Positions 38,308 to 55,994 of a stretch of 64,000 nt of DNA are shown here, piece by piece. The position numbers and the translations under genes were made by a program. Source of the DNA: Candidatus Poribacteria bacterium (GTDB lineage Bacteria > Poribacteria > WGA-4E > PCPOR2b); contig JAJDUM010000117.1 of assembly GCA_022826645.1 (NCBI GenBank), positions 585-64,584 of the forward strand, given 5' to 3'. Under the pieces are notes generated by a model. That model saw nothing but the letters and a program-made list of their open reading frames with translations. It was not told the origin of the DNA and searched no databases. Each line of letters begins with the position of its first letter. Position 1 is the stretch's first letter.

Positions 38308-38309
38308 TC

Positions 38310-39089
38310 TTAATGCGCTGCCTCACCAAACGTCCTCGGTCGATACCCTGTGTACTCAGATAAAAAGAGGATGACATCCCAAATTTCCTCCTCTGTCAGG
38401 TGATCCTCCCAGACCGGCATGGCAGAATCCCACGGGGTGGCGGCTGGTGGCAAACCGGGACCGCCTTTACTGATACGCCAAAAGAAGAAAGATTCTTGAT
38501 AGTTCGGAATGATCCCAGGATCTTGGAAATTTGCAGGCGGCGGGTTGAAGCCGTGCGCGAAATGCCCCTCTCCGTCGAGGTCATCACCGTGGCAATAAAA
38601 GCAGTTCTGATAATAGACGCGACGTCCGTTATCTACATGTGCCTTGAATGCTTCCGTGTCATCCTTTTCGAGATGCCGGAAGGGATTTTCCACCTCTTGC
38701 GTGAGACCAATAACCTTATCACGGTACTCCAATTCAGTGGGAGGCGCGGGGTGAGCAGTCCGCAATACGGCTGGTGGATCTGCTTTTGTCGACAACCTAG
38801 AAAAGCTTAAACCAAGCATAACCAAAGGAATAAGGACAAACAACACAGTACGCCTTGTCCGCCTATCATCATCAGCCAAGGTCTCCTTGACGGGACGCAG
38901 AAATTCTCGAAACCTATCATCTTCGACGGATACGTGGACTAATATCGCCAATAGAATAAGCCCCAGATACATTGAGATCACGCTGGCAGGTAACGGCACA
39001 GACCACACACTACCGATGAAGAATCTTAAAAAGAGCCAAAGCACTACAAATATGATTAGGCATTTTGTGAAGAGGGATAATCTTTGCAT
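38310..39089 (-). CDS. Membrane-anchored monoheme cytochrome c
   Basis: Three N-terminal TMs, CFYCH, SAMP. Confidence 0.85.
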   Translation of the reverse strand: MQRLSLFTKCLIIFVVLWLFLRFFIGSVWSVPLPASVISMYLGLILLAILVHVSVEDDRFREFLRPVKETLADDDRRTRRTVLFVLIPLVMLGLSFSRLSTKADPPAVLRTAHPAPPTELEYRDKVIGLTQEVENPFRHLEKDDTEAFKAHVDNGRRVYYQNCFYCHGDDLDGEGHFAHGFNPPPANFQDPGIIPNYQESFFFWRISKGGPGLPPAATPWDSAMPVWEDHLTEEEIWDVILFLSEYTGYRPRTFGEAAH

Positions 39090-39105
39090 AGCGATTTAAC
39101 TTTCC

Positions 39106-40635: not shown

Positions 40636-42453
40636 TTAATCATCCCCTGTGGTGGCTTCTGCCTCAATAGACGGCTGCTGCTCTTTTTTCTTGTCGCCCC
40701 ACAAACCGAGCCAGAAAATAAAGCCTACCAAAGCGAAGAAAATTACCATAATAACAGAAATCATGTTAACAGCATCAGCAAGCAAAGGGGTGTGCGCATC
40801 CGGAGAGGTGTCAGGCATTACACCAAAAATATGCCACGCCTCTCGAAGTCCCGACCGGGCGTAGCCCATCAATCCCATGAGTGAGGTGAAGGTAATGGCG
40901 AGTAGAATCAACACATATTGGGACCGGTCTGTCATCTGTCCCCAGCTGATTTCGCTTGAGCGCATCGCTTTCCGATACATAATCAGATCGATTATCGTTA
41001 CCAAAATCATGACAGCTAATGCGATTATGACCTGTATCGGCGTCAGCACGTTGACGCGAAAATCGCTAGCGACTTTGAATCCTGCAATACCGATGGTGAC
41101 AATTGCTGCGACAGCCAGTCCAACAATAGCTGCGATGACGATGTTACCCACTTTGCTCCAACCCACTGTCGGCGTTTTACCGGATCGTCGGTAAAAGAGA
41201 AAACTAAGAAACGTGGTCAAGATAATGAGATTGACAACCGTATTTTTCGCCGTCATCAAGCCGAAAAGTCCAACGAGCGGGTGATTTGGTCCTCCTATTG
41301 CAGCCAACTCCGTGGGCGACATAATCAATGTGCGCGGCGTCATCCAGACCGCGACAGATAGAACGATGATAGCGATCATGTAGGGACGATAGCGAGCGTA
41401 CCTCTCCCCGCCGGCGATGCGGGTCATGCCTGACCAGAGATAGTAATTCGCTCCGATAAACAGGACACCGATCATCACCGCCTGAATGATGAACAACCAC
41501 GAGAAGAGACTCCCCATCATGTTAATGCCCATCGTGTTATTGAACATATAGATTTCTCGTCCCAACCAGTATCCGGCGAAGGGAAGCGGAATCAGTCCAC
41601 ACAGCGCGATAAAGTTGCCCGTATATCCCATCCAGTCGTAATGCGCTTTATCCTCCCGCGTCTTAGCGGCAAGGAAACGAAAGGCGGAATAAGCACCGAC
41701 GATTGCACCGCCGAACGCTATATTCCCAATGAGCCGATGGATATTGACAGGCATCCATGTATAGTTATTGACTGCCTGCCACAGGGTTCCGATGAATGCA
41801 CCCGACTCATCATGGAGTGGAATTGGCTCGTGGTCGGATCCCATAATCGCTGGACTTGTCTGGTAAGTCAGCCACGAGTTAGAAACGAACATAATCGCTG
41901 TACCGAACACATTCAGGAGCACACCGAGAAATAGGTGCCACATTTTCGACACCCTGCCCTGCATCCGATCCCACCCGTAAGAATAGAGATAGAGCGTAAA
42001 GGTCTCTCCGAAAAACAGGATGACGTAGAAAATCATCGTTGGGCCGAAGATTCCTGACAGTTTGTTCATTACCTTCGGGTAGCACCAGATGAGGATAAAA
42101 ACAAGTACCCCACCCATCAGGGCGGTCGTCGAAAACGCGCCCATGCATAGCTTGATGAACTCCTGTGCCATCTTATCATACCGTTTGTCCTTCGTTTTCA
42201 TCCCGACAAACTCAATGACAACTGCGAACATCGGAACACCCAAGATGAAGGAACCGAACAATAGATGCAATTGAGCAGCGATCCACGCGGCGTTGCGGCT
42301 GCCGATCCCTGGGAAGGGACGGTACTCTGTGTCGGTCACATCTTGGGCAAAGACAGTCACAACTGTCAACAACAGATACATGACAAGCAGACCGAACAAA
42401 AGATATAATCTGTTTTTGGATCCGTTCATACTGGAATGTTTGGTGAGATACAT
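40636..42453 (-). CDS. Cytochrome bd-like oxidase subunit I (CydA superfamily, non-quinol type)
   Basis: QLHLLFGSFILGVP, FFGETFTLYLY.YGW, HLFLG...NSWL..P, NIHRLIGN, GYARSGLREAWH; no Q-loop motif. Confidence 0.8.
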   Translation of the reverse strand: MYLTKHSSMNGSKNRLYLLFGLLVMYLLLTVVTVFAQDVTDTEYRPFPGIGSRNAAWIAAQLHLLFGSFILGVPMFAVVIEFVGMKTKDKRYDKMAQEFIKLCMGAFSTTALMGGVLVFILIWCYPKVMNKLSGIFGPTMIFYVILFFGETFTLYLYSYGWDRMQGRVSKMWHLFLGVLLNVFGTAIMFVSNSWLTYQTSPAIMGSDHEPIPLHDESGAFIGTLWQAVNNYTWMPVNIHRLIGNIAFGGAIVGAYSAFRFLAAKTREDKAHYDWMGYTGNFIALCGLIPLPFAGYWLGREIYMFNNTMGINMMGSLFSWLFIIQAVMIGVLFIGANYYLWSGMTRIAGGERYARYRPYMIAIIVLSVAVWMTPRTLIMSPTELAAIGGPNHPLVGLFGLMTAKNTVVNLIILTTFLSFLFYRRSGKTPTVGWSKVGNIVIAAIVGLAVAAIVTIGIAGFKVASDFRVNVLTPIQVIIALAVMILVTIIDLIMYRKAMRSSEISWGQMTDRSQYVLILLAITFTSLMGLMGYARSGLREAWHIFGVMPDTSPDAHTPLLADAVNMISVIMVIFFALVGFIFWLGLWGDKKKEQQPSIEAEATTGDD

Positions 42454-42655: not shown

Positions 42656-43405
42656 TTACTTCTTCTTAAAATCGGCACTTGTAAAGTTGATTTCAACATC
42701 TCCGTCCGCAACTTCGACAACTTGGGCTTTTGTCGTTCCAAGTTCCTCGTGCCACGCTTGGACGCGGTACTTACCGGCGGGGACATCTTTAATCATGTAA
42801 GTCCCCGTATCGTTTGAACCTTCGTAAGCGTCGGAGCTGATCCATTTGCCATCTTTGTCTTTGTAGCCTGTCACAGCGTAATAGTCATTGTCTGTAACAA
42901 AGATATAGCCTGTCATCCAGTTGTGGATATCGCAGGTGAACTTGATCGCTTCACGTTTTTCGAGTTTCAGAGGTAACTTTTTACCGGGCCCCGGTATTTG
43001 CCAGTTCGGAGCCTCGTTTTTTGTGGCATGGGAATGGACGTTATGCGCAACTGGATCGCTGGAGGTCACATCTACTGTGGTCCCTGCGGTTACAACAAGG
43101 ACATGCGGGTAATACATGCAGTCAACCTGATCCATGACTGGATTTTTGGCAGGGATTGTTGGCTCCGCGCCGCGTGCCCGCAAGTAAACAACAACGTTTT
43201 TAATTCCTTTGCCTTTGGACACCACAAGGGCTTCAGATTTACCATTTTTTAGGGAATCAACACAGTGTTGGTCTTTGGTTGCACTCAGTGCTGGGCGTGC
43301 TGGTGCAGCTCCATCATACATCACGGTTCCGCTGATTGCACCGGCATATACCATGCTCGTGATTAATATAAAGCTGAGTGCGGTCAGAGTTATTGTAGTT
43401 TTCAT
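42656..43405 (-). CDS. Secreted cupredoxin-like / carboxypeptidase-regulatory-like protein, paralog of 35611-36393
   Basis: DQVDCMYYPH, HNVH, TCDIHNWM, AWHEELG. Confidence 0.75.
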   Translation of the reverse strand: MKTTITLTALSFILITSMVYAGAISGTVMYDGAAPARPALSATKDQHCVDSLKNGKSEALVVSKGKGIKNVVVYLRARGAEPTIPAKNPVMDQVDCMYYPHVLVVTAGTTVDVTSSDPVAHNVHSHATKNEAPNWQIPGPGKKLPLKLEKREAIKFTCDIHNWMTGYIFVTDNDYYAVTGYKDKDGKWISSDAYEGSNDTGTYMIKDVPAGKYRVQAWHEELGTTKAQVVEVADGDVEINFTSADFKKK

Positions 43406-43469
43406 GATTCGAACGGATCCTTTCTTTATTCAAGTCCGACATTGAAATGATTGTATGTTGATGGTGTTT

Positions 43470-43533
43470 ATGATAGCAGCATATGAAAGGGGGAATCAAG
43501 TGTTAAAAAGGGCAATGTCACGGATATCCGTGA
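43470..43533 (-). promoter_or_regulatory. sigma70 promoter with upstream palindromic operator (bd-like oxidase operon)
   Basis: TTGATT(43499-94)-18 bp-TATCAT(43475-70) with TGn; TCACGGATATCCGTGA at 43518-43533. Confidence 0.7.
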
Positions 43534-43628
43534 ACGCTGTTTTCCTGTGGCTGGCGCGCGCTATTAGATCACATAAATGCGAGTCACATGCGTCAATGAC
43601 AAGGAATCACCGAATTAAAACCGAAGCA

Positions 43629-43657
43629 CCTGCCCTCAGCGAGTCGCTGAGGACAGG
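43629..43657. terminator. GC-rich hairpin downstream of the substrate-binding protein gene
   Basis: CCTG(C)CCTCAGCGA-g-TCGCTGAGG(A)CAGG. Confidence 0.45.
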
Positions 43658-43683
43658 GACCGGTTAACATCTAATATTGAAGA

Positions 43684-44853
43684 TTATTCAAAATCCACAA
43701 ACTCGCCGTTTTCAACAGTCAGTACAATCGGATCGTAAACCGCGTCTCCGACCTCATTAAAAGAGAACTGACCGAGAATGGTATCGAGATCCATGATATT
43801 GGCTAACGCATCTCGAACCGCCGTTGCCTCGGTGGATTGTGCATTCGTAATTGCTTCTGCTAGAATATAAAGGGTAGCGTACGACTGTGCAGCCCAAGAA
43901 TCAGGTTCGATATCATACGTCGCCCGGTAATTCTGGACGAAGGATTGATTGCCCGGTGTGTCAGCCGTAGCGCGCCAATTGGTGAAAGTAATTGCCCCTT
44001 CGGCGGCCTTCCCCGCGATTGCCACTTCAATTCCCGTCAAATCGGGAACAATCAACTGCACAGAGGCAGGGATACCGATCTCACGCCCTTGAATCATAAT
44101 CTGAGCCATATCCGCGGACAAAGCGGAGATAAAGATAGCCTCAGGATTCGCCTCCATTATCGCAGTTAATTGCGCTGAAAAGTCGGTCTCGCGGGTTTGG
44201 AAGGTTTGTGTAGTCACAATATCAACACCATTAGCAACAAGGGCTTTACTTATCTCATTATTGCTACTCGTGGCATAGACATCAATGTCATCATATATTA
44301 GTGCCACTCGTTGGTAGCCAAGTTTCTCTAGAGTTATCTTGACACCATTTGGATTTAGTACATCAGTAGTGAGCCCTGTGCGAAAGATAAAATCGCTAAG
44401 CGCACTCAGACCGGCAGCGGAAGAGAGCGAGCTAAAACATACAACTCCGTTCTCTTCTACGATCGGAGCTAGCTCTCTGAGCTGAGTTGAGAAAGTGATA
44501 CCGGTGATAATGGACACGCCATCTTGATGAATCAGTTTATTAAAGGCCGCTTTCGCACCTTCAATGGTGCTCTGATCATCCTCAATGATGAAGGTGATTT
44601 GGGGACCGCCATAGTGGTTAAGTTCTGCTTGAGCGAGCTCAAAGCCACGTTTCATCGGTAAGCCGTACAGAGGCCCGTTTGTGTCGTCCAGCGGCAGGGA
44701 GACACCGATGATAATTTCTCCGGGAAGCCCTGTCTCAGGTGGTGTAGGGGTGGGGACGAGAAGTTGTCCAATCTGGTCACAGGCGGAAAGCCCGACAATC
44801 AAGGCGCCTATTGCCAATACATAAGTGAATTTGGTGAATCTGCTGATGCTCAT
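43684..44853 (-). CDS. Branched-chain amino acid-type ABC substrate-binding lipoprotein (LivJ/K-like)
   Basis: Lipobox LSAC, TDFSAQLTAI, AAQSYA, LGQFSF. Confidence 0.88.
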   Translation of the reverse strand: MSISRFTKFTYVLAIGALIVGLSACDQIGQLLVPTPTPPETGLPGEIIIGVSLPLDDTNGPLYGLPMKRGFELAQAELNHYGGPQITFIIEDDQSTIEGAKAAFNKLIHQDGVSIITGITFSTQLRELAPIVEENGVVCFSSLSSAAGLSALSDFIFRTGLTTDVLNPNGVKITLEKLGYQRVALIYDDIDVYATSSNNEISKALVANGVDIVTTQTFQTRETDFSAQLTAIMEANPEAIFISALSADMAQIMIQGREIGIPASVQLIVPDLTGIEVAIAGKAAEGAITFTNWRATADTPGNQSFVQNYRATYDIEPDSWAAQSYATLYILAEAITNAQSTEATAVRDALANIMDLDTILGQFSFNEVGDAVYDPIVLTVENGEFVDFE

Positions 44854-45033
44854 TTTGAACCTCCTCGGTTTCGAATGAAAAAATTAAGGAGGGGCAGATT
44901 CAGACAATCTACCCCAACCTGATTCATTGTTGATTGATATTCGGAACAGGTTATCAAAAAATCCCTTGGATCGACGATCAAAGTCGTAATCCCTACAGGA
45001 TACAGATTCCGATTCCATTACCCCTGCGGAAAA

Positions 45034-46206
45034 TTACTCAAAGGCTACGAAAGCACCGTTTTCGACAAGCAGTATATTCGGATCATAAACTGCGTCTCCA
45101 TCAGCACCAAAAGAGAAATTCCCTAAAACAGTAGGAACATCCATAGTATGCGCCAGCGCGTCCCGAATCGCCGCTGCATCGATGGAATGGGTTGTCGCAT
45201 ACGCCTGCCCAATTGCTGCAGCGAGAATATTGAGCGTGGCATACGACTGCGCTGCCCAAGCAACCGGTGCCTCTCCGTATTTCTCAGTATAGCTCTGGAT
45301 GAACGCCTGATTCATTGGGTTGTCATTCATGCTGAACCAACCGATAGAAGTAACTACTCCCTCGGCAGCATCACCCGCGCCTGCCACCTCGATATCGGTC
45401 AATTCGGGAACAATGATGCGCACATCAGGCATGAGCTGGCGCGCTTCGATTATAATCTGAGGTATATGAGCGCCTAACGCGGAGATGAAGAGGGCACCGG
45501 GATTTAACTCCATTATCCGAGTTAATTCCTCCGTATAATCGGTAGCGTCACCTTGGTATGTCTCCATGGCCACAATTTCGACACCGCCCTCGACAAGCGC
45601 ATCCCTGAACGCTTTATCACTAAGTGTAGAGTAGGTATCTCCGTCGTGATATATTGTAGCTGCCGTTTCGTAGCCCAATTTCGCCTGAGTCGCCATGACG
45701 AGAGGCGGGTTAAGCACAGCGGAGGTAAGTCCCGAGCGGAAGGTAAAATTGCCACGTCCCTCCAGCACCGGAGCAGATGAAACAGAGCTAAAAAGGACAA
45801 CCCCGTTGTCTTGGGCAATTTGAGTTACGCCTTCAAGCTGAGTAGAGATAGCAAAACCGACAATCGTAGATACACCTTCTCCAATCAGCTCATTCACAGG
45901 ACCAACAGCGCTCACGCTTTGGTCATCTTTTTCGACGAGCTTAAGTTGTGCCGAGCCGAGCATCCCTGAGTGGTTAATATGTTCGCTAGCGAGTCTAAAG
46001 CCATCTAGCATTGGTAACCCATACGCGGCAGCGAATGGCCCAGTCTGTGCTACAACGACCCCGATCGGAATCTCTACCACCTCAGGTGGCATCTCAGGTT
46101 GTGGGGGAAGTAGAACTTGTTGAATTTGATCACAGGCAGAAAGCCCCACAATCAGAGCAACAACCGCCAGTACGTATGCGAATTTGGTGAATCTTCTGAC
46201 CTTCAT
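45034..46206 (-). CDS. LivJ/K-like substrate-binding lipoprotein, paralog
   Basis: Lipobox LSAC; shares the RBS region GGAGGTTCAAAATG and signal peptide with its neighbour; start 46206. Confidence 0.88.
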   Translation of the reverse strand: MKVRRFTKFAYVLAVVALIVGLSACDQIQQVLLPPQPEMPPEVVEIPIGVVVAQTGPFAAAYGLPMLDGFRLASEHINHSGMLGSAQLKLVEKDDQSVSAVGPVNELIGEGVSTIVGFAISTQLEGVTQIAQDNGVVLFSSVSSAPVLEGRGNFTFRSGLTSAVLNPPLVMATQAKLGYETAATIYHDGDTYSTLSDKAFRDALVEGGVEIVAMETYQGDATDYTEELTRIMELNPGALFISALGAHIPQIIIEARQLMPDVRIIVPELTDIEVAGAGDAAEGVVTSIGWFSMNDNPMNQAFIQSYTEKYGEAPVAWAAQSYATLNILAAAIGQAYATTHSIDAAAIRDALAHTMDVPTVLGNFSFGADGDAVYDPNILLVENGAFVAFE

Positions 46207-46367
46207 TTTGAACCTCCTTGGTTCTGAGCCTAAAAAATGGCATGGATAAAACAGGTACGTACTTCTCGCATCTGTTCTCCACACCTATCCAACAACCAAT
46301 TTAGAGATAAATTGGTTGAGACCACCTCACTCTTTTCTGACGATGCACGACTAAACCAAGAAATGGT

Positions 46368-46742
46368 TCAATCACGCCTCGGCGTTGGTCGGAAATTCTC
46401 TTTGATGAATTTGAACAATTCTCGCTGTTCTTCATCTGTTAAATAATAAAAAAATGCCGGCATATTGTCTTTGCCGGCATCGATACTATGTATGAGTTGC
46501 TCGTCGGTACGCCCCTCCCAAAACTCGGTTGTCGTCAGATTTGCAGGTTCTAGCTTTTTGAACCGTCCAATTCGTCCATTGCCTTGCCCGTTTGCACCGT
46601 GACAACCGGCACAATATCTTGCATAATTGTACTCGACTTCGGAGCCGTATCGGGTGCTGGGATCTACCGCCCGACAGAGCCAGATTAGCCAACTCATACT
46701 AGCGGCAAATATCCCAACGATGATGAGAAGATGTCGAATCAT
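46368..46742 (-). CDS. Small monoheme cytochrome c
   Basis: N-terminal TM or signal, CAGCH, NMPAF. Confidence 0.85.
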   Translation of the reverse strand: MIRHLLIIVGIFAASMSWLIWLCRAVDPSTRYGSEVEYNYARYCAGCHGANGQGNGRIGRFKKLEPANLTTTEFWEGRTDEQLIHSIDAGKDNMPAFFYYLTDEEQRELFKFIKENFRPTPRRD

Positions 46743-47063
46743 TTAAGTGATCCCACCTTTGTGATTTTAAAACAAGTTAAGCAAGAGTGAAATCTCCTGA
46801 TGAATCGGCACGTCAAAAACCGAGTTTCATGCCTGGAATACACACGATTTAAGGAAAAAATCAACCCATCTTCCCACACGCGGAGGATATGAGGATCGAA
46901 AAACTCGGTTTTTCATTATGTTCTATTCCCTCAAAAGGGAATAATCCGTATCTCGAAGCTCACGAATCGGATTCAACTGTTCACTAATTCCTCTCCTGTT
47001 TTGAAGATTGAATCCCAAAACTCGGGAAGGAACAATTGCTGCTTGGACAAAACCTTGGAAGAT

Positions 47064-47501
47064 TTACATGTTATAAACCAAAAGCACCCACAGATCGCCC
47101 TGTTTTACGAAGTGGATCTGGTCTCCGAGCTTAATTTCTTCTTCGTGCTCAAATATCCTAATTGCTATCACTACGCCTCGCCCTTGGTCATTATGGGCGA
47201 TAACGACGCCATTTGTAGGGTCTGCCCCGAAAGTATCTTCAGGTAGTTCAAGCCCAACTGTCAACATGGGTGCCTGTGCCACCAATTGCTGAATTCGAGC
47301 GTCATCTGCTGCTTCAAGTGCCGCAGTGAAATCACTGAACGCCGGGAACATATCATCGACATCGGACATGTCCATATCAGGGGTTTCAGGGACAATCGCT
47401 TCAGGTGTATCCGGTTGTAATATGAGTTGTTGAAAGTCTGCACAACCGACTAAAAACAGTAAGGCGAACAAGCTCATGATGCTTGGGGACATACGATTCA
47501 T
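47064..47501 (-). CDS. Hypothetical lipoprotein
   Basis: Lipobox LVGC. Confidence 0.6.
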   Translation of the reverse strand: MNRMSPSIMSLFALLFLVGCADFQQLILQPDTPEAIVPETPDMDMSDVDDMFPAFSDFTAALEAADDARIQQLVAQAPMLTVGLELPEDTFGADPTNGVVIAHNDQGRGVVIAIRIFEHEEEIKLGDQIHFVKQGDLWVLLVYNM

Positions 47502-47774
47502 GGTTATAACCTTTCATTTAGCACGATCGTTAATGGATCGAAATTATAAGGCCAACAATCTCAATCCGTTAGGGATCGCACCTGTGATAAAAAGCACTTC
47601 TTATCACAGATGCTGAGAGACAATTGGGCTGTATTTAAGAACTTCCTACGGCGTTTTTTGCCTGCGGATTTAGTAATTGTTGGGTTTCACTATTGTTCCA
47701 TCCAACCTACGTGCGATCGAGATGTGAATATAGACCTGCAATATAGTCAACACGCCCTAGCAACTTGCGTTATT

Positions 47775-49415
47775 TTAACCCTGTGGCACGGGAGGGTCTT
47801 GTTCTGGGGCAGCCCTCGATTCGAGTGTCTCAATAACACCGGCACCGATACTATCGCCCCAGACGTTGATGGTTGTCCGGCATCGGTCAAGGAACCAATC
47901 GATAGTCAGGATTAACCCGATACCCTCAATCGGCAGCCCAACAGCTTTTAAGACAATCACCATTGTCACCAGACCCGCTTCCGGGATACCTGCGGCACCG
48001 ATGGCAGCAATCGTCGCCGTCAGAAAGATCACGACCTGCTCCACAGGACCTAAGGTGATTCCATAGACCTGCGCGATGAACATTGCAGCGACAGCTTCGT
48101 AGAGGGCAGTGCCGTCCATGTTAATTGTCGCACCAAGTGGTAAGACGAAACTTGAAGTCCGATTGGATATGCCGTTTTTCTTCTCGGTGCCTTCCATCGT
48201 CAACGGCAGCGTCGCTGAACTTGATGCTGTGGAGAAAGCGTTTAACAGGGCTGCCCCCATCCCTTTTGCATAGGCCAACGGATTGCGCCTGCCGACTAGA
48301 AAAAGGATTATCGGCAACACAACCAAGGCGTGTATAGCAAGTCCAAATATGACAGTGAAACTATATTTCCCAACGGCAAGCAGCTCCGGCAGAAATTTGG
48401 TGAATCCACCGGCGCGCCCAATGCGCCCTGCAACTAATCCAAAGATGCCAATGGGTGCGAAAATCATAATCCAGTGCACAATACGCATAACGCCATCGTT
48501 CAGCACTGAAATAAAATTAATGGCATTCTGTCCCCGTTCACCCAAGATGGAAAATGCACAGCCAATCAGCAGTGAGAAAAAGATCAGCGGGAGGATATCC
48601 GTCCGCACCATCGCGTTGAACAGGTTTCGCGGAATCAAGCCCTCTTTCCCGGTCTCCTCGTTTCCAATCAAGACTTCCGACAAGATATTGCCGATGTTTC
48701 TCTCTTCTTTTCCACGCACCGCTCCGGCGATAGGCAGATCAATCTTTACGCCTTTTCCTTCGGGTTGAAGTTCCGGTTCATCGGAAACAAGTTGTCCTCC
48801 AACACGCCGGAAGGGCAGGCGTGTGCCATCCTCCGCTTCGATATAGACTTCCTCGCCGCCTTGGGTAGGTTCCCACAATTTTACTGTGGCAGAGTTTCCA
48901 GTCATTGACTGAATTGCACCCTGCACCCCTTGATCAGGTAGAATCAGCGCATACCTGTCATCATAACCTGTTTGTTCCCAAGTACCGTCCGTTAAAGTGA
49001 CAGTGCGATTGTTTTCACCACCAACTGTATACGTATACTCTGGATGATCTGCGCCGCGAGAAATCCCTTTTCCCGGTTGTACAATATTGACCAAGATGAT
49101 GCCGATGAGCACCGAAATCCCAGTGGTCGCCATGTAATAGAGGACGGTGCGTCCGCCTATTGGACCGAGGTTGCGGATATCGCCTAAGCCGGTAATGCCA
49201 ACAACCATCGAAAACATGACCAGCGGGACGACAATCATTTTCAGGGCATTTAGGAATATGTCACCAAGAAGAGTAGTTTTTGCAGCGAAATTTGGTATCC
49301 AACCGCCAACGACAAGCCCAAGGATGATAGCAATGACGATGCCGATGAGAATACGCTGCCCACCACTTCCTCCCGTTGAGGCTTCGTCAGATACGGAGGG
49401 ATCTGTTTGGAGCAT
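47775..49415 (-). CDS. Dicarboxylate/amino acid:cation symporter (DAACS, GltP/EAAT family) with a large loop insertion
   Basis: FSTASSSATLP, GATINMDGTALYE, IGAAGIP, DRCRTTINVWGD. Confidence 0.93.
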   Translation of the reverse strand: MLQTDPSVSDEASTGGSGGQRILIGIVIAIILGLVVGGWIPNFAAKTTLLGDIFLNALKMIVVPLVMFSMVVGITGLGDIRNLGPIGGRTVLYYMATTGISVLIGIILVNIVQPGKGISRGADHPEYTYTVGGENNRTVTLTDGTWEQTGYDDRYALILPDQGVQGAIQSMTGNSATVKLWEPTQGGEEVYIEAEDGTRLPFRRVGGQLVSDEPELQPEGKGVKIDLPIAGAVRGKEERNIGNILSEVLIGNEETGKEGLIPRNLFNAMVRTDILPLIFFSLLIGCAFSILGERGQNAINFISVLNDGVMRIVHWIMIFAPIGIFGLVAGRIGRAGGFTKFLPELLAVGKYSFTVIFGLAIHALVVLPIILFLVGRRNPLAYAKGMGAALLNAFSTASSSATLPLTMEGTEKKNGISNRTSSFVLPLGATINMDGTALYEAVAAMFIAQVYGITLGPVEQVVIFLTATIAAIGAAGIPEAGLVTMVIVLKAVGLPIEGIGLILTIDWFLDRCRTTINVWGDSIGAGVIETLESRAAPEQDPPVPQG

Positions 49416-49492
49416 TTGTTAGCCCCCTTTCAGCGGCGCGATACGAAGGATTGGATAAAAGTCCTTATCTACATTCAAGAAAGACTTCAGAA

Positions 49493-52400
49493 TCACTCGC
49501 CCAACGAGTTGAGGTAATCTCTCACCAGCCGGATCTGTTCTTCGGCATCGTCGACCCCAAAGCCGTCAACAGGTTGATGTACGCCACCAATCTTGGGCCA
49601 TGCTTGCGGCATTGCAGTTCCCGGTTGGAAGGATTGTGGATCTTTGAGCCAGTCAATGACCCAGTCAGCTTTGAGACGACTCTTTGCCAGTGCAAGGTCG
49701 GGGCGGCCTGTTTTATCGCTGCCCGGTGGGATAACTTCACCTTGTTCCGGATGACAGGAGATACACTGGAGCACGTCAAAAATCCGCTTTCCGACACGGA
49801 GTTCCCTTTGAGACGATGGCTGTAATGCAATGGTCTCATAGGGGAACACCTCATCGTCAAGTGCGGAGAAGTATTTTACAAGTGCAGTCGCTTCCTCGTC
49901 TGAGAAGCCGAAAGTCGGCATCCGGACTTCAAGCCCGTAGCGGATAGGGGTTGGTGTTTTGAGGAACTCGAACAACCAATCTGGATAAACCTTGGCACCT
50001 TGCGCTTGCAAAGTAGGTGGGGCAAAGCGCTTGGCATTCAGCATGTCCAAGTCTTGGTTAGCAGCGACCACATTTACGAAATCGCCGCCTTTCCCTTCAA
50101 TGTCATGGCATCCGGTACAGTTGTATTTTTTCGCTAACCGGCGCCCAGCATCGATTTGCCGCGTCTTCTCGCTCGGTTGATGGATGTAGCTCACCGGGTA
50201 TTTTGTAGGTTGGAAACTCTTGAGTAGAACAGCAAGGGCGCGCGCCTCCTCGTCACCGATGGTGTGTTCGCTAAAGACAGGCATTCGGGAGACGATGCGG
50301 CGTGTTTGGTAGCGCCTGGGGTTGGTTACTTTGCCGACCGTCCAACCGTGCCAGCTGTGTTCAACATCTGCCGTATCTCCGAAGTCCAATTCATCAACGG
50401 TTTTGGCCCCAAATTCACCGAGATCCGCACCGACCTTTGATTCATTCTCAAAGCCGGGGATACTATGACACCCAAAGCAACCGTACGTGCGAACCAGCTT
50501 TTCGCCTTCCATTGGATCCACCGCTGCGTGCGGGTTTTCGTTGCCGGCAATAGGAGATGGTGTTGTCTCTTGCAGCGACATTAGATAGGCTACTGCATTG
50601 CTCACCTCAGTCTTAGTAAGACGTAGACTGGGCATAACGGTGTCGGGGTCGTAAGCTCTTGGATCGCTGATCCATTGGCGTAGGAATTGTGGTGTGAGTT
50701 TGCTGCCGACACCATCCAATGTTGGGGCGAAATCACTTCCGAGCCCGTCAACAGTATGACATGACAGACAGCCAACTGATTTTACAACCTGCTCACCTGC
50801 GGCAATTGTACGGGGCGCTGTTGAGTATGAGGCATCGCCTTGATCTATTGCCGGGTCTTTCATCTGCGCCAAGTATGCGGCAATTGATTTCACTTCATCA
50901 ACAACGCGGTCAACGGCAGTGTCAGGATAAGGATACTTCGTGCCGTCGTCCTTTTGGAGGATAATGCCGGTGTCGGTTTTGGTGACGATGCCGTAGTGCT
51001 TATTTCCATTTTTGAGGTACACCGCTTGGGTCAACTTTTCGACGGGGAAGAAATCTGGCATCTTGGTCTCTGGCAGATAGGCGGTCGGCTGTTTAATCCA
51101 CCCTTCCAACCAATCAACGCTGTTAACTTTACTGCCGATTTTGGCGAGCGACGGGCCAACTTTGTCGAGGTCTGCTAACACCGAATATCCCTCAACAGCA
51201 TGACAGCCGTGACACCCGACATCTTCAAATAGCGCCATCCCCTTCGAGAGGACAGGCGAATAATCTTGGAGCTGCCCGGTCTCCGGATTGACGGCATCCA
51301 ACATCATCACGCCATCGTGGCAGCGACGACAGTTGGACTCCATATAGCCGTGTAATTCTTCTGAGACTTTACCGGTGTGTTCATCCAACCCCAAGACAGG
51401 CGTCAGCCAAAATTCTTTCTTGTGGTCTAGAGCGTGTGCGGCTATTTCAGTTAGCCCTTGTCCCTGCCCACCGTGGCAGGGGGTGCATCCAAATCTTTCA
51501 CCGGGGTGTTTACCGAGCAGCACATCCCGGTGAGGATGCGTCCGAAGCACGGGATCGTATCCAGTCTCATAAGCGATTTCGACGAGGTCGGCATAAACAT
51601 CCGGATCGGTAAAGGTCAACTTGCCATCTTCGCTTAACTCATAACTACCCTCTTCGGCATCTTCCTCATCAATAAACACCGTCTCACTCCCCGTTTTAAT
51701 GTAGGGATGTTTTAGTTGGAGCGTAAGGTTGTTTTCGCCGTCCCCTTCAATCTCCTCAAACTGCTCTTTAGCATATCCGTCGTATCCCGCTTTATCCGAA
51801 GCGAAGTGACAGGTGGCGCATCGGTCTGCCGTATAATCAAAATCTTCAATGTAGTACTGCACAACTGTACGTGTCTTTGTGAAGGGGCTTTCCGCCAATG
51901 TGCCGATGAAAGTGCGCTTAATGCCGCCAACGGAATGGAGTTTCGCCTCAAGTCTATCGACCTCCGCGTATTTCGCTTTATCTGCTTTCGCAGCCTCGAT
52001 TTTCGCCTGAAGTTCACCAATCTTTGCAGCAGATTTGGTATCTGCTGCATTGTATTTTCGGACTAGGAGATATTCGGCTAAAGCTGCCTCAACGTGTCCG
52101 TTGGCGTCATAAACCTCGGCGAGGTCTTTATAGGCATCGGCGAGGTTCCGTTGTGCTGCGAGCACTGCATCGGTCAGTCCTCCCTCAATCCGGCTTTCAA
52201 ACTCATCTAATTTCTTTTTCCATTTTTCGGCTCCCTCTTTGTCGCCGTGGTGTAGCGCATACTGATACTTATAGTTGACTGCATCCGACTCACTCTGGTC
52301 AAATTTACGTTCCTGCAAGGCTTCTTCCAGTTTTATCTGTAACCCTGCAATTGTACCTCTTAGCGTTTTCTCCTGTTTAGGGTCAATCTCTTGAGGCGCT

Positions 52401-52618
52401 TCAATCTCAGGCAGATCCTGTTTTGCATTTTCCAACTCAATTTTGGTTTTCTGATATTCGTATTCGTAGAATTGCCGCTGAATCTCCTTCCATGGTCGTC
52501 TGGTAATGGTTTCGTTATAGAAGCCCCACAGAGTTACAAATCCCAACAAACCGGAAAGGATAAAAAATAGCGCTGCGTAAGATTTTTCCTCAACCCGAAC
52601 TTCTTTATTGCTCCTCAC
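49493..52618 (-). CDS. Membrane-anchored octaheme cytochrome c of the Rieske/cytochrome b complex
   Basis: Eight CxxCH motifs (CATCH, CTPCH, CRRCH, CHGCH, CLSCH, CFGCH, CTGCH, CISCH), N-terminal TM and coiled coil. Confidence 0.88.
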   Translation of the reverse strand: MRSNKEVRVEEKSYAALFFILSGLLGFVTLWGFYNETITRRPWKEIQRQFYEYEYQKTKIELENAKQDLPEIEAPQEIDPKQEKTLRGTIAGLQIKLEEALQERKFDQSESDAVNYKYQYALHHGDKEGAEKWKKKLDEFESRIEGGLTDAVLAAQRNLADAYKDLAEVYDANGHVEAALAEYLLVRKYNAADTKSAAKIGELQAKIEAAKADKAKYAEVDRLEAKLHSVGGIKRTFIGTLAESPFTKTRTVVQYYIEDFDYTADRCATCHFASDKAGYDGYAKEQFEEIEGDGENNLTLQLKHPYIKTGSETVFIDEEDAEEGSYELSEDGKLTFTDPDVYADLVEIAYETGYDPVLRTHPHRDVLLGKHPGERFGCTPCHGGQGQGLTEIAAHALDHKKEFWLTPVLGLDEHTGKVSEELHGYMESNCRRCHDGVMMLDAVNPETGQLQDYSPVLSKGMALFEDVGCHGCHAVEGYSVLADLDKVGPSLAKIGSKVNSVDWLEGWIKQPTAYLPETKMPDFFPVEKLTQAVYLKNGNKHYGIVTKTDTGIILQKDDGTKYPYPDTAVDRVVDEVKSIAAYLAQMKDPAIDQGDASYSTAPRTIAAGEQVVKSVGCLSCHTVDGLGSDFAPTLDGVGSKLTPQFLRQWISDPRAYDPDTVMPSLRLTKTEVSNAVAYLMSLQETTPSPIAGNENPHAAVDPMEGEKLVRTYGCFGCHSIPGFENESKVGADLGEFGAKTVDELDFGDTADVEHSWHGWTVGKVTNPRRYQTRRIVSRMPVFSEHTIGDEEARALAVLLKSFQPTKYPVSYIHQPSEKTRQIDAGRRLAKKYNCTGCHDIEGKGGDFVNVVAANQDLDMLNAKRFAPPTLQAQGAKVYPDWLFEFLKTPTPIRYGLEVRMPTFGFSDEEATALVKYFSALDDEVFPYETIALQPSSQRELRVGKRIFDVLQCISCHPEQGEVIPPGSDKTGRPDLALAKSRLKADWVIDWLKDPQSFQPGTAMPQAWPKIGGVHQPVDGFGVDDAEEQIRLVRDYLNSLGE

Positions 52619-52675
52619 GATTCCTATTGACTCCTTACTGTTTGAATGGACGAATTACATATTATCCAATACGCC

Positions 52676-53542
52676 TTAGATATTAAACCACGGAGAAACC
52701 CAAATGTACTTGATATTCAATGTCCACCGAAGAATCATCTTGATTGGCAAAGACATCATCGTTAAGAACAGGAATGAAACCACGATGTATCGCACCAATC
52801 CCAACTCTTGAAGAAATTTGCTGGTTCCTCTTTTCAGAAAATAATAGATGGGACCTAAAGCAAAATATCCGACGACAACACACATACCGAAGATACCGGC
52901 GGGCTGTTCATTGCGGATGCCAAATAGGTAAGAGAGGTTGACGTTGGTTAACGGTACGATTTTGTGCGGATCCCACTCTTTCCATGGGGCGAAAAAGTTC
53001 CAACCGGGTCCTCTCAGGAAGGTACCGACGACCATTAACACAATCCATAACACGAAAAAGCCGAAACAGAAGGTTATAAGTGCGAACGGACGCTCTTTTA
53101 GGGTATAGTAACCTTTCCCTTTGGGATTGATATCTATATAGGGAATGGCAATTAAACCGGCGATAATCAACCCTGGCAAAACAACGCCTGCAATCCACGG
53201 ATCAAAGTAAACCAACATCTCTTGTAATGCGAGGAAATACCATGGAGCTTTAGATGGATTCGGGGTTATTGTCGGGTCGCTCGGCTCTTCGAGTGGGGCA
53301 TCAATGGTAATAGACCATATCCCCAGAACGAGCATTGTAATGATTGCACAGAGAAATTCGTTGCGGCAAAGGTAGGGCCAGCAGTAGACTTTATCGTTAA
53401 GTGCTGCTTCTGCGGGTGTGCCGGCTAGGTCATTTCTGCGTCCTTGGCTGAATGCGAGCCAAGTGAAGAAAGGTAACAACAACACAATCGCAACAATCGG
53501 AACGTTATCCGGCTTCGTAACCAATAAAAGAAAATACTCCAT
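52676..53542 (-). CDS. Cytochrome b subunit IV-like (PetD/QcrC-like), extended
   Basis: TPNPSKAPWYF (PEWY equivalent), PYID; extra C-terminal TMs. Confidence 0.85.
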   Translation of the reverse strand: MEYFLLLVTKPDNVPIVAIVLLLPFFTWLAFSQGRRNDLAGTPAEAALNDKVYCWPYLCRNEFLCAIITMLVLGIWSITIDAPLEEPSDPTITPNPSKAPWYFLALQEMLVYFDPWIAGVVLPGLIIAGLIAIPYIDINPKGKGYYTLKERPFALITFCFGFFVLWIVLMVVGTFLRGPGWNFFAPWKEWDPHKIVPLTNVNLSYLFGIRNEQPAGIFGMCVVVGYFALGPIYYFLKRGTSKFLQELGLVRYIVVSFLFLTMMSLPIKMILRWTLNIKYIWVSPWFNI

Positions 53543-53583
53543 ATATCACCTCACTGAAAATAGGTATTGAAATGAATTCAGTT

Positions 53584-54357
53584 CTACAGGGGTCCAGAAA
53601 TACCGCCATCCTTGCGGACACGCCAGAAGTGTAGAGCCATCAACACGCTTGCCAAAAGCGGCACAGCAACACAGTGCAGGATGTAAAATCGCAAGAGCGT
53701 TGAGGGCCCGACAATTGTCCCACCAAGGAGGGCAAATCGCACATCATTCGCTTGCGTGACAATATCCTGCGGGGCGAAGGGCCCTTCATGCCCTAAGACG
53801 GGTGTCGCTCGCGCCATGTTTGTTCCAACAGTGACCGCCCAGAATGCGAGCTGATCCCACGGTAGCAGGTAGCCGGTAAAACTGAGAAAGAAGGTGACAA
53901 GCAGTAGGATGACGCCGACACCCCAGTTAAATTCACGAGGTTTTTTATAGGATCCTGTCAGGAAAACACGGAACATGTGGAGCATAACTGCGATGACCAT
54001 GCCGTGGGCTGCCCAACGGTGCATATTGCGCAGGAGCATTCCGAACGGGATGTCAAACTCAAGATATTGTATATCGCGGAATGCGTATTCTGCGGTGGGA
54101 CGATAATAGAACATTAACAACACACCGGTAACGGCGGTGACAAGAAACATCAGAAAGGTGATCCCGCCCATGCACCATGTAAATCGGAAGTTAATCGCGT
54201 GGCGGGTGACGCGGGGAGGATGCAGATGGAGCCAGACATTTTGGAGAACTTGAAGGGTGTATCGTCTTCCTGTTTTCTCGTAGCCGTGGCGAAACATCGA
54301 CTGCCAGATTTGGTTGTTTGTGATTTTCTCTTTTAATCCATTACGTCTTTCATTCAT
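53584..54357 (-). CDS. petB: Cytochrome b6-like subunit (split cytochrome b)
   Basis: WCMGG (heme ci Cys), MHRWAAH...LHMFR, TGYLLPWDQ, helix D His pair separated by 14 residues. Confidence 0.92.
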   Translation of the reverse strand: MNERRNGLKEKITNNQIWQSMFRHGYEKTGRRYTLQVLQNVWLHLHPPRVTRHAINFRFTWCMGGITFLMFLVTAVTGVLLMFYYRPTAEYAFRDIQYLEFDIPFGMLLRNMHRWAAHGMVIAVMLHMFRVFLTGSYKKPREFNWGVGVILLLVTFFLSFTGYLLPWDQLAFWAVTVGTNMARATPVLGHEGPFAPQDIVTQANDVRFALLGGTIVGPSTLLRFYILHCVAVPLLASVLMALHFWRVRKDGGISGPL

Positions 54358-54520
54358 AGCAACGACTCAGCCTACCTCGCTTCAGCATAACCAAGGCTGT
54401 ATAGCTCCTTTCTTGCTCAATTCAAGTTTACCATCAAGACTGTACCAAGGAAGTATAATTTAATTGGATAGGGCATAACAACGGTCAGGAGAGAATGTAA
54501 TTGATGAGTTTGCCACTTCA

Positions 54521-55018
54521 CTAAATCCTTAAAGTAGATCCTGGCTTCCCCCAATCGCCCCGCTCCTCTAGAAATTTCACGGATTTATCAATCAGGAGTT
54601 GTCCATCCTCCGCCAGTGTAATTTGCACACGCTCAAGGGGTCTCGGTGCGGGCCCTTCAAAGTGCATCCCTTCGCGGTCAAATCCGCTACCGTGACAAGG
54701 ACATTTAAATTTATTTTCAGATGCAAACCATCGAGGGGTGCAGCCGAGATGCGTGCAGATTGCGACCAACGCATAAAACTCACCATCCTCTTTCCGAACA
54801 ATCCAGACACCATATGGATTTTTTTTGAACTTCTCGCTAACCGTTCCGGGCGGATATTCACCGGGAAATCCGGCCTTAAAGACCGAGGATGGTTCAAAAA
54901 GGACTCGCGGATATAAGAATCGAATCAATCCAGGACCAAAGGCAAGCCCAGCGGCGGCGAGGAAATTCCCCCAGCCCAAAAACTTAAAAAATGAACGTCG
55001 AGATAACACCAAGTTCAC
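54521..55018 (-). CDS. petC: Rieske [2Fe-2S] subunit
   Basis: Tat motif SRRSFF, CTHLGC, CPCHGS, GPAPRPL. Confidence 0.93.
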   Translation of the reverse strand: MNLVLSRRSFFKFLGWGNFLAAAGLAFGPGLIRFLYPRVLFEPSSVFKAGFPGEYPPGTVSEKFKKNPYGVWIVRKEDGEFYALVAICTHLGCTPRWFASENKFKCPCHGSGFDREGMHFEGPAPRPLERVQITLAEDGQLLIDKSVKFLEERGDWGKPGSTLRI

Positions 55019-55112
55019 CTCAGATTGAAAGTTTGTGGAATTTAGTCAAACGGTGTGTAAACAGCAAAGGACACGATCCGAGTATTTAAACTGCATTATC
55101 GAACCGGCAGTC

Positions 55113-55175
55113 ATTATAGCACGACATAAAAGAGAGATCAAGGCATAAAATAGAGGGGTTCACGGATATCCGTGA
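55113..55175 (-). promoter_or_regulatory. sigma70 promoter with upstream palindromic operator (bc complex operon)
   Basis: TTGATC(55141-36)-17 bp-TATAAT(55118-13) with TGn; TCACGGATATCCGTGA at 55160-55175. Confidence 0.75.
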
Positions 55176-55349
55176 CTTCTATTTAGGGTGTAGATCGGAA
55201 AGAACACGACCGTGAAAATTGGCTGATAGCTCTGACCTCGGAGCGAAAAAAGCACCCAGAATTCACCAATGATATTTTTCGATATTCATATGTGGATATG
55301 GTGCGATGTGAATCAACGCACGCCGTGCATATGTGCAGATTTCTATGGC

Positions 55350-55994
55350 TCAAGCATTCACCTTGACGTGTGTCCCCTCCATCTGCTCTACAACGTGCTG
55401 AATCATATCCTCAACTGTCTTGAAGGGATGGTCCGGATATTGTTCCAAACTAAAGTTCATGTCATTCGCCCCAAAGACGAACATATCAATACCCGGTTTG
55501 CCGAGGTGCCGTGCATTGGTTACAGCATCAATCGACTCCAGCTGTATGGCGAGGATGCCGTTATTGTTCCACCATTCGGCATATTCGAGCCGGTCCATAT
55601 CTGGCTTGAATCCGTATCCTGAACTGGGTCCCCAACTTCTTTTTCCGACTGGTGGGTAGTAGAACGCGTCTATCGCCTCATCGACCGTTTCCTCGTCCTC
55701 AACCTGTGGCACCACAATAGCGAATGGTCCGAGGTCAAGGTAATTACCAATCAGGTATGCCTGACGCGTATTTTTGATACGAAATTGGGTAGGCACGCCC
55801 AATTCGGTTGCCATCGCGCAAAATGAGACCAATCGATCTTCATTGAACGCTGCGTGCTGGCTGTCAATAGAGACCAGATCGTAGGAATCTTGACTAAGAA
55901 GGGCTTCGAGGTCGCTCTTGGATGCATCTATGGAAGATCCTGCGATTTTGAGGCTCCCGCCCTGATGTAGACGTTGCTTCAATGATTCTGCCAT
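55350..55994 (-). CDS. HpcH/HpaI aldolase/citrate lyase family protein
   Basis: IDSQH, YPPVGKRSWG, IQLES, FGANDM. Confidence 0.85.
   Translation of the reverse strand: MAESLKQRLHQGGSLKIAGSSIDASKSDLEALLSQDSYDLVSIDSQHAAFNEDRLVSFCAMATELGVPTQFRIKNTRQAYLIGNYLDLGPFAIVVPQVEDEETVDEAIDAFYYPPVGKRSWGPSSGYGFKPDMDRLEYAEWWNNNGILAIQLESIDAVTNARHLGKPGIDMFVFGANDMNFSLEQYPDHPFKTVEDMIQHVVEQMEGTHVKVNA

Follow-up and report, generated by a model that had tools for sequence, protein, structure and literature searches.

The stretch of DNA considered here, called the window, comprises 64,000 nucleotides of a Candidatus Poribacteria genome (contig JAJDUM010000117.1 of GenBank assembly GCA_022826645.1). This source genome, G000, totals 6,043,612 bases in 127 contigs. 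Two operons for respiratory electron transfer lie on the minus strand of the window, one beginning with a Rieske protein and a cytochrome b split into two genes, and the other containing a CydA-like oxidase gene. Upstream of each operon lies an exact copy of the same 16-bp palindrome, TCACGGATATCCGTGA. We examined this palindrome, the promoters that it accompanies, and the regulator that may bind it. The genes concerned are as follows.

54521-55018, minus strand: Rieske [2Fe-2S] protein, 165 residues (Pfam PF00355, E 1.3e-12)
53584-54357, minus strand: N-terminal part of cytochrome b (b6-like), 257 residues (Pfam PF00033, E 2.9e-45)
52676-53542, minus strand: C-terminal part of cytochrome b (subunit IV-like), 288 residues (Pfam PF00032, E 3.6e-6)
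49493-52618, minus strand: multihaem cytochrome c, 1041 residues (Pfam PF00034 and PF13442)
46368-46742, minus strand: monohaem cytochrome c, 124 residues (Pfam PF13442)
43684-46284, minus strand: two periplasmic binding proteins (Peripla_BP_6; Pfam)
42656-43405, minus strand: 249-residue protein, the first gene past site 1 (sub-threshold Pfam matches only; no NCBIfam match)
40636-42453, minus strand: CydA-like protein of the cytochrome bd subunit I superfamily, 605 residues (Pfam PF01654, E 5e-19)
36553-40608, minus strand: three cytochrome c proteins of 500, 259, and 584 residues (Pfam)

Together, the two operons would form a respiratory branch in which electrons pass from quinol to the bc complex, on to cytochrome c, and finally to the CydA-like oxidase. 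The CydA-like operon contains three cytochrome c genes, the last of which (584 residues) also encodes an EB_dh haem-binding domain. The PF01654 match of the CydA-like protein is restricted to profile positions 3-237 of 418. In the study of the cytochrome bd superfamily by Murali et al. (preprint 10.1101/2021.01.16.426971), proteins of the OR-N and OR-C branches have a CydA core without the quinol site and are encoded in operons with other electron donors. The CydA-like protein fits that study's description of these non-quinol-oxidising branches, which is a likeness rather than a placement in a subfamily.

The elements upstream of the two operons are listed below, with site 1 preceding the CydA-like operon and site 2 preceding the Rieske/cytochrome b operon.

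43518-43533: palindrome TCACGGATATCCGTGA at site 1 (exact match; conserved in relatives)
43503-43509, minus strand: A/T tract, TTTTTAA in the minus-strand reading, site 1 (sequence and position statistics)
43494-43499, minus strand: -35-like hexamer TTGATT, site 1 (consensus scan)
43470-43478, minus strand: TG-extended -10 element TGcTATCAT, site 1 (consensus scan; inferred start near 43463)
55160-55175: palindrome TCACGGATATCCGTGA at site 2 (exact match; same 16-mer at the orthologous promoter in relatives)
55146-55152, minus strand: A/T tract, TATTTTA in the minus-strand reading, site 2, beginning 9 nucleotides past the palindrome on the promoter side (sequence and position statistics)
55136-55141, minus strand: -35-like hexamer TTGATC, site 2 (10 of 12 consensus matches, 17-nucleotide spacer)
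55113-55121, minus strand: TG-extended -10 element TGcTATAAT, site 2 (consensus scan; inferred start near 55106)

Both palindrome copies face minus-strand genes. Along that strand, site 1 consists of the palindrome, 18 nucleotides, TTGATT, 18 nucleotides, TGcTATCAT, approximately 58 nucleotides, and the ATG of the open reading frame (ORF) for the 249-residue protein; site 2 consists of the palindrome, 18 nucleotides, TTGATC, 17 nucleotides, TGcTATAAT, approximately 88 nucleotides, and the GTG of the Rieske protein. A preliminary description of this DNA had reported the two 16-bp palindromes, an 18-bp gap between each of them and a TTGAT(T/C) -35 hexamer, and a TG-extended -10 element at both promoters, and each of these elements was found where it had been placed. 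The 18-mers that it gave as lying in opposite orientations are reverse complements of one another, with outer bases that are not conserved in relatives. Both promoters also appear in the consensus scan, where the site-2 promoter ranks best of the 27 in 43000-55600. The numbering used throughout assumes a transcription start 7 nucleotides past the -10 box, and on this assumed rather than mapped start the palindrome centres fall at approximately -61.5 and -62.5 at the two sites.

The palindrome is rare in the genome that carries it. The window holds no further match at three or fewer mismatches besides the two exact copies, and shuffled controls gave a mean of 0.24 matches, with two or more in 1 of 100 shuffles. 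Genome-wide, two exact copies occur in 6.04 Mb, compared with approximately 0.0014 expected (6.04e6/4^16), accompanied by one site with one mismatch, three with two, and 43 with three. On these counts the sequence is not a high-copy repeat, a concern that the preliminary description had raised. The single one-mismatch copy, TCACGGATATCCGTCA, lies within a 793-residue ORF at C42:8808-8823; the same variant is found in G009, in G010, and, with differing flanks, in G038, and we take these shared copies to reflect chance plus common ancestry. Two of the two-mismatch sites are coding, and the third (C67:22690) is intergenic and has no promoter architecture. When the palindrome (up to three mismatches) and the A/T tract are sought in combination, G000 contains the two known sites only. 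Downstream of either palindrome, no -24/-12 sigma-54 promoter element (TGGCAC-N5-TTGC) was seen.

Conservation was examined across relatives and then across a phylum-wide set of 176 genomes, 159 of which belong to the order of G000 (families and genera are labelled f and g). At one mismatch or fewer, the 16-mer is present in 35 of 41 relatives, mostly as two copies per genome 6-14 kb apart; a reversed control pattern gave one match each in 2 of the 41. Exact copies occur in 77 of the 176 phylum genomes, all inside one order, with the following distribution.

Family f1: 27 of 28 genomes, plus G000
Family f3: 10 of 11 genomes
Family f2, genus g7: 37 of 40 genomes
Family f2, genera g16 and g18: 1 of 1 genome each
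Family f2, genus g13: 0 of 65 genomes
Family f2, genus g15: 0 of 3 genomes
Family f2, genus g17: 0 of 2 genomes
Family f4: 0 of 7 genomes
Other orders and classes: 0 of 17 genomes

Five genomes (G026, G064, G082, G086, and G088) contain no exact copy and instead have one-mismatch copies altered only at position 1 or 3. Counting exact copies and those with one outer mismatch, the element is present in 82 of the 159 genomes of the order.

The genes behind the palindrome are conserved along with it. At all 15 relatives' loci inspected, the site is followed by the Rieske gene, two cytochrome b genes, and a multihaem cytochrome c gene. A second site precedes a protein of approximately 250 residues and a CydA-like gene at 13 of the 15; the loci of G026 and G020 have a single site, before the bc operon. 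The monohaem cytochrome c gene directly follows the multihaem gene at 11 of 15 loci and lies between the multihaem gene and the second palindrome at 13 of 15, and a homologue of the 249-residue protein follows the second palindrome at 13 of 15. When the footprint is compared between relatives, as the preliminary description had proposed, all 16 letters are unchanged at the same two promoters and the flanks drift.

Additional exact copies in some genomes face Peripla_BP_6, haem-synthesis-like, or ferredoxin genes. One copy with the same promoter architecture precedes Peripla_BP_6 genes in G021 (L046:4001), another with this architecture precedes CopD/UPF0093-like and radical-SAM/SPASM genes in G024, and in genus g5 a copy, again with this architecture, lies between genes for a 4Fe-4S ferredoxin and an aminotransferase. 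The G024 site, the third in that genome, is followed by a leader of approximately 700 nucleotides without a convincing ORF before the CopD/UPF0093-like gene (L047:3959-4685). This leader could contain a regulatory RNA or an unrecognised small gene.

A palindrome of this kind might act as an RNA hairpin or terminator, a recombination site, or the end of a mobile element rather than as a protein operator. A terminator scan does list both copies on the plus strand, with 6-pair stems and T-rich tails, and on one unrelated low-GC metagenome contig the 16-mer lies just past an ORF. The scan as a whole is at background, however, with 16 terminators found versus 13.1 expected. The stem shows no compensatory change, all 16 letters being kept. 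The plus-strand T-rich tails fall on the far side, which is not conserved, whereas the promoter-side TTTTA begins 7-9 nucleotides past the stem. The two or three copies per genome are always at promoters and never flank a movable segment. We therefore regard an origin of this kind as very improbable.

The position of the palindrome relative to the promoter was examined in 109 of 111 distinct site contexts, which are not mutually independent, using a script that takes the best promoter inside a range of 30-60 nucleotides from the palindrome. The gap between the palindrome and the -10 hexamer is 40-42 nucleotides in 91 of the 109 contexts and 50-52 nucleotides in 18, and the -10 element is TG-extended in 105. 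Given the assumed start, the two spacing classes, 10 bp apart, place the palindrome centre near -61.5 and -71.5 on the same helical face. The palindrome ends 17-18 or 27-30 nucleotides upstream of the -35 hexamer. On the promoter side, TTTTA begins 7-9 nucleotides past the palindrome in 87 of 109 contexts, compared with 4 of 109 on the far side. In the 50-52-nucleotide class, the tract tracks the palindrome rather than the -35 box. Its centre lies approximately 19 bp from the dyad.

At class I promoters, the C-terminal domain of the RNA polymerase alpha subunit (alpha-CTD) beside CRP sits approximately 19 bp from the dyad. The arrangement described above resembles CRP class I promoters in having a symmetric 16-bp site wholly upstream of the -35 hexamer, spacing classes that differ by 10 bp with centres near -61.5 and -71.5 (assumed start), and a promoter-side A/T tract at this alpha-CTD distance. 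It differs in its half-site, which is not of the CRP/FNR type, and in that the likely binding protein is outside the CRP family. The comparison is made here at the level of sequence, with both the start and the alpha-CTD contact being predictions. The geometry of the 16-mer and tract fits a class-I-type activator site, and the palindrome very likely serves a transcription activator as its docking site; we infer activation rather than repression at the two promoters. The preliminary description had taken the palindrome for the operator of some respiratory regulator and for a functional link between the two operons, and this reading gains support from the invariance of the element across three families, the 10-bp-phased spacing, and the absence of the element elsewhere in the genome. 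It had also noted that the site does not match the CRP, FNR, or Rex consensus, which agrees with the presence of TCAC(G) where CRP sites have TGTG(A).

Candidate binding proteins were sought by surveying G000 for ten Pfam DNA-binding families and by profiling six of the proteins across genomes. Among the families searched, G000 encodes no Rrf2, LysR, or MerR_1 protein, one GntR, two TetR, one ArsR, two OmpR-type, one strong CRP-type, and 16 HTH_8 proteins. Of these 16, 11 have a GAFTGA loop, three have GAYTGA or GAFTDA, the one on contig C114 is degenerate, and only the one on contig C102 has the loop deleted. The C102 protein is encoded directly behind a histidine kinase.

C102:54985-56769: candidate histidine kinase, 594 residues (PilS-like six-helix membrane domain, PAS, HisKA, HATPase_c)
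C102:56766-58085: candidate response regulator of the NtrC family, 439 residues (REC, Sigma54_activat, AAA_lid_14, HTH_8)

The distribution of the C102 regulator follows that of the palindrome. Full-length orthologues, 57-100% identical, occur in 80 genomes of the order, and they are present in 80 of 82 motif-bearing genomes and in none of 77 motif-less genomes. They are found in all 29 f1 genomes (as a split gene in G020), all 11 f3 genomes, g16, g18, and 38 of 40 g7 genomes. In f4 (0 of 7), g15 (0 of 3), and g17 (0 of 2), there are only paralogue-level matches of at most 42% identity. The same is true of 63 of 65 g13 genomes; the remaining two, G137 and G174, hold homologues of approximately 50% identity that appear as remnants, in which the Walker A lysine is lost, the recognition helix is altered, and no kinase gene is present.

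Alignment of 10 orthologues from three families shows that the region of the receiver aspartate and the recognition helix, (K/R)PSTFRD, are invariant; the corresponding helix in other G000 HTH_8 proteins is mostly of the RxTL(Y/H)RK type. The GAFTGA loop, deleted in the C102 regulator, is also absent from the nine other aligned orthologues, and the Walker B pair is never DE, being KD, AE, DD, TD, AD, or AN. Because GAFTGA is deleted and Walker B is degenerate, the C102 regulator is probably independent of sigma-54. Among its relatives with solved structures are Aquifex NtrC1-type proteins and Brucella NtrX (5m7n, E 2.9e-56).

Enhancer-binding proteins that lack GAFTGA and act with sigma-70 have been described, and PMC6158489 names TyrR, HupR, HsfA, PhhR, NtrX, and VpsR. 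The C102 regulator resembles these atypical proteins in combining REC, AAA+, and HTH_8 domains with a missing GAFTGA motif and a Walker B pair that is not conserved (PMC6158489), and also in that its proposed target promoters are of the sigma-70 type. According to the same text, VpsR binds immediately upstream of the -35 element, and Brucella NtrX is described as a repressor at its own promoter. The C102 regulator differs from NtrX in scoring under the NtrX cut-off, and the centre of the operator lies farther upstream than the VpsR site by one to two helical turns.

The description of NtrX, a GAFTGA-less relative, as a repressor (PMC6158489) raises the alternative that the C102 regulator binds the palindrome and represses or dampens the two promoters. 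Lineages without the system keep the -35 and -10 elements and presumably still express the oxidase operon. On the other hand, a single site lies 17-18 or 27-30 nucleotides upstream of the -35 hexamer on one helical face, with the A/T tract on the promoter side. Because the site is upstream and phased and the tract lies toward the promoter, recruitment is expected rather than occlusion. In g13, moreover, the region upstream of the -35 hexamer has become A/T-rich, which could replace an activator. Repression by the C102 regulator thus seems improbable.

The kinase gene precedes and overlaps the regulator gene in 10 of 10 motif-bearing genomes examined. The motif GGVENPF in the kinase membrane domain is invariant in all 10 orthologues, and the PAS domain is missing in g7. 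This pair resembles the proteobacterial RegB/RegA systems (PrrB/PrrA, ActS/ActR, RoxS/RoxR) in the six-helix kinase membrane domain with GGXXNPF, in the partial match of that domain to the RegB model, in a regulator with a Fis-type helix-turn-helix, and in having respiratory complexes as proposed targets. The phylum differs, Poribacteria rather than Proteobacteria, and so does the regulator: RegA is not known to have an AAA+ domain, whereas the C102 regulator has a degenerate one between the receiver and the helix-turn-helix. The RegA operator consensus does not resemble TCACGGATATCCGTGA. In RegB, according to PMC3000548, GGXXNPF between helices 3 and 4 binds ubiquinone, and its mutation gives a constitutive kinase; the same source describes a helix 1 with conserved Arg and Gln38 and, past the phosphorylated His, a redox-active Cys. 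Helix 1 of the C102 kinase has a conserved Arg (LRWIAI), but no Gln that would correspond to Gln38 was seen seven residues on. The PAS domain (lost in g7) is a further difference from RegB. A Cys is conserved 13 residues past the His (HEINNPLDGLLNC), a spacing unlike that of RegB.

As a separate observation, a gene for an EutN/CcmL-type microcompartment vertex protein (C102:54625-54981) lies directly upstream of the kinase gene, and a homologue of approximately 95 residues occupies this position in 4 of 9 other motif-bearing genomes.

Our analysis allows us to propose a mechanism. The kinase would sense the redox state of the quinone pool and phosphorylate the C102 regulator, and a dimer of the regulator's Fis-type helix-turn-helix would bind TCACGGATATCCGTGA, centred near -61.5 or -71.5. 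Bound regulator and the TTTTA tract approximately 19 bp from the dyad would then recruit sigma-70 RNA polymerase through alpha-CTD in a class I manner. This proposal builds on four observations: the element is conserved, it is phased relative to the promoter, it is rare in the genome, and it co-occurs with the regulator genes. We consider it slightly better than an even chance that the palindrome is the operator of a dedicated activator for both operons and that this activator is the C102 two-component system.

Several observations weigh against this assignment. Two motif-bearing g7 genomes, G077 (81% complete) and G099 (92% complete, three contigs), have no orthologue of the regulator, and a repeat search of both gave best matches of 37% identity only. 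The two-component genes are not adjacent to the target operons; conversely, the surroundings of the two-component genes are free of the palindrome, the closest match at any of 12 loci having at least four mismatches. The kinase scores 101 bits against the NCBIfam model for ActS/PrrB/RegB (NF033792), whose cut-off is 350, with a match covering residues 31-210, the membrane domain. The regulator falls under the cut-off of every NCBIfam equivalog, with 329 versus 714 bits for AtoC and 266 versus 600 bits for NtrX (NF051870). Of 24 RNA-library runs, all available as contigs, none contained half of the sampled words; the contigs of four runs (from relatives mostly 90-95% alike) provided no start site, the long ones spanning everything, and the lack of cover over 55039-55281 in runs X2 and X9 does not count as evidence. 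The number of evolutionary events behind the co-occurrence is small, and the same pattern could be found in many unrelated genes. The Xre, AsnC, Fur, BlaI, AraC, and LacI families lie beyond the ten surveyed, and the cross-genome profiling covered six proteins, none of them TetR, MarR-like, or ArsR and none from the remaining 13 of the HTH_8 set. Finally, the CRP-like protein has a recognition helix of the form xET(T/I) in motif-bearing lineages (with S third in one g10 sequence) and ENM, EDT, DET, EEM, or RLC in motif-less lineages, based on 21 sequences, and in genus g5 a distance of 3-11 kb separates its gene from the operons.

The scope of the survey bears on a second reading, in which TCACGGATATCCGTGA is the operator of a regulator outside the families covered (Xre, AsnC, BlaI, Fur, AraC, or ribbon-helix-helix) or of an unprofiled TetR, MarR-like, or ArsR protein. 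That ten Pfam families were searched and six proteins profiled leaves room for such a regulator, as do the two motif-bearing genomes that lack the proposed one. Members of the TetR, MarR, ArsR, and BlaI families are usually repressors that overlap the promoter, however, and the palindrome is wholly upstream of the -35 hexamer and phased. The distribution of the C102 regulator, moreover, already matches that of the motif: 80 of 82 motif-bearing genomes have it, and 0 of 77 motif-less genomes do. We judge a regulator from outside the survey to be unlikely, albeit the most serious of the competing explanations.

The palindrome might also be bound by the sole CRP/FNR-family protein of G000 acting as a classical class I activator.

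C105:34713-35462 (L132:1426-2178, minus strand): CRP/FNR-family protein, 250 residues (cNMP_binding E 2e-24, HTH_Crp_2 E 3.5e-16)

This protein is the only strong CRP-family match in G000, members of the family typically bind sites centred at -61.5 or -71.5, and the helix pattern and g5 gene position described above point in the same direction. Of the 176 genomes, however, 174 have a homologue of it, and the 77 motif-less genomes of the order are all among them. Positions 1 and 6 of the recognition helix, which contact bases in CRP, vary in motif-bearing lineages (R/S/T/M/V and A/D/N/I/T, respectively), whereas the DNA is invariant. The CRP-like proteins of f2 have long insertions near the dimerisation helix, yet g7 retains the same 16-mer. 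At the contacted positions, the half-site is the complement of the CRP/FNR type. Binding by this protein appears quite unlikely, and on the half-site (TCACG versus TGTGA, TTGAT, or TTGTGAA) we reject identity of TCACGGATATCCGTGA with a CRP, FNR, or Rex operator. The CRP-like protein has no FNR-type N-terminal Cys cluster, and the f2 insertions, of up to approximately 110 residues, lie in and after the cNMP-binding domain.

The assignment of the C102 system can also be considered in light of lineages that retain the oxidase operon without the operator. Of the order's 159 genomes, 148 carry a CydA-like gene; it is absent from f4 (0 of 7) and G020. It is kept in g13 (62 of 65), g15 (3 of 3), and g17 (2 of 2), the genera that have neither motif nor regulator. 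A set of 80 related loci from a public genome collection divides into 41 with the palindrome and 39 without it at two or fewer mismatches. The 36 palindrome-less loci of at least 15 kb mostly have the cytochrome c stop codon just upstream and keep the -35 and -10 elements, with the A/T-rich sequence TTTTAGGTCTtTTTATTTGCAT in front. At palindrome-less loci L080-L125, TTTTAGGTCTtTTTATTTGCAT is conserved before a TGtTAATAT -10 element approximately 60-100 nucleotides upstream of the 250-residue gene, and it may be a UP-like replacement for the lost activator site. In the motif-bearing genera g16 and g18, ACACGGATATCCGTGA directly follows the cytochrome c stop codon. In the five g15 and g17 genomes, the best palindrome match across the fetched locus has at least four mismatches.

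A maximum-likelihood tree of the C-terminal 395 residues of the CydA-like protein, with 20 rows sampling each genus and none dropped, contains three supported f2 clades: g7; g15, g16, and g17 (95/95); and g13 and g18 (99/97). The tree therefore joins motif-less g13 with motif-bearing g18, and motif-less g15 and g17 with motif-bearing g16. Because motif-less and motif-bearing genera are paired twice, the tree implies at least two joint losses of the switch and its operator, if a single-gene tree tracks the species. That the tree was built on one gene counts among the points against the C102 assignment. We suggest tentatively, with confidence somewhat short of even, that a RegB-type quinone sensor has been rewired in Poribacteria to a GAFTGA-less NtrC-family regulator, which would activate sigma-70 promoters in the class I manner from a composite element (the invariant palindrome plus an alpha-CTD tract 19 bp from the dyad). 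The pair would form a dedicated switch for the bc complex and oxidase that was discarded with its operator at least twice, in lineages that, at the genomes and loci examined, keep the oxidase operon and have apparently made it constitutive.

Poribacteria, here a sponge-associated group, have no cultured member, and hence there is no experimental knowledge of how their gene expression is controlled. The proposal specifies a testable circuit of one exact DNA site, two (sometimes three) promoters, one kinase, and one regulator. It would make the bc complex and the CydA-like oxidases, which are poorly understood, parts of a single respiratory branch under joint control, and the kinase domain suggests the quinone pool as the signal. 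It would also provide a further example of an atypical enhancer-binding protein at sigma-70 promoters, here partnered by a sensing domain like that of RegB, and the repeated joint loss would constitute a natural experiment on symbiont lineages simplifying their respiratory control. In the literature searched, TCACGGATATCCGTGA was not found, and its 10-mer core appeared only outside bacterial regulation, as judged from titles and the beginnings of abstracts. Among the matches listed there for the two-component systems or respiratory chain of Poribacteria, none dealt with regulation, and the same literature held nothing joining the terms NtrX, GAFTGA, and respiratory.

Several other candidates were rejected. 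No regulator gene was found beside the operons in a scan of 15 relatives' loci and nine neighbouring ORFs. The C114 regulator, an NtrC-family protein (C114:6302-7759; L187:403-1860) with the degenerate GAFTGA loop GRRVATSVDQ, is present in f1, f3, and 6 of 7 f4 genomes and in 0 of 112 f2 genomes, so its distribution differs from that of the motif. The GntR protein is confined to g1, g4, and g5; of the two OmpR-type regulators, one is restricted to g1, g2, and g6 and the second is ubiquitous. Seven GerE matches in G000 fall in frames of 159-258 residues, five of which read like extracytoplasmic function sigma factors and none like a receiver-GerE protein, as judged from their sequences. A second protein with a cNMP domain (C117) has no helix-turn-helix. 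A sigma-54-dependent enhancer-binding protein is disfavoured on the GAFTGA loop, the Walker B pair, and the lack of -24/-12 promoters, and the NtrX score excludes the C102 regulator from NF051870. Autoregulation of the two-component operon was rejected for lack of any palindrome with fewer than four mismatches in the 12 loci. For the CRP-like protein, autoregulation was likewise rejected; in g1 its gene follows a glycosyltransferase gene without a gap, so it has no promoter of its own.

A metagenome scan with the composite pattern returned six loci and no new regulon member. Three of these are bc promoters of Poribacteria, two fall within a coding region of a high-GC organism, and the last is on an unrelated low-GC contig. 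In the two high-GC loci, which are unrelated to Poribacteria (L231:5000 and L235:7772), the 16-mer is embedded in a 24-bp palindrome with GCGC on both sides, and the L235 copy lies within a 415-residue ORF. These 24-bp palindromes are probably coincidental. Within the genus of G000, a gene for an SDF-family dicarboxylate symporter (47775-49415) and the Peripla_BP_6 pair (43684-46284) are insertions that separate the bc operon from the small cytochrome c gene and site 1. These inserted genes may be read through from the site-2 promoter.

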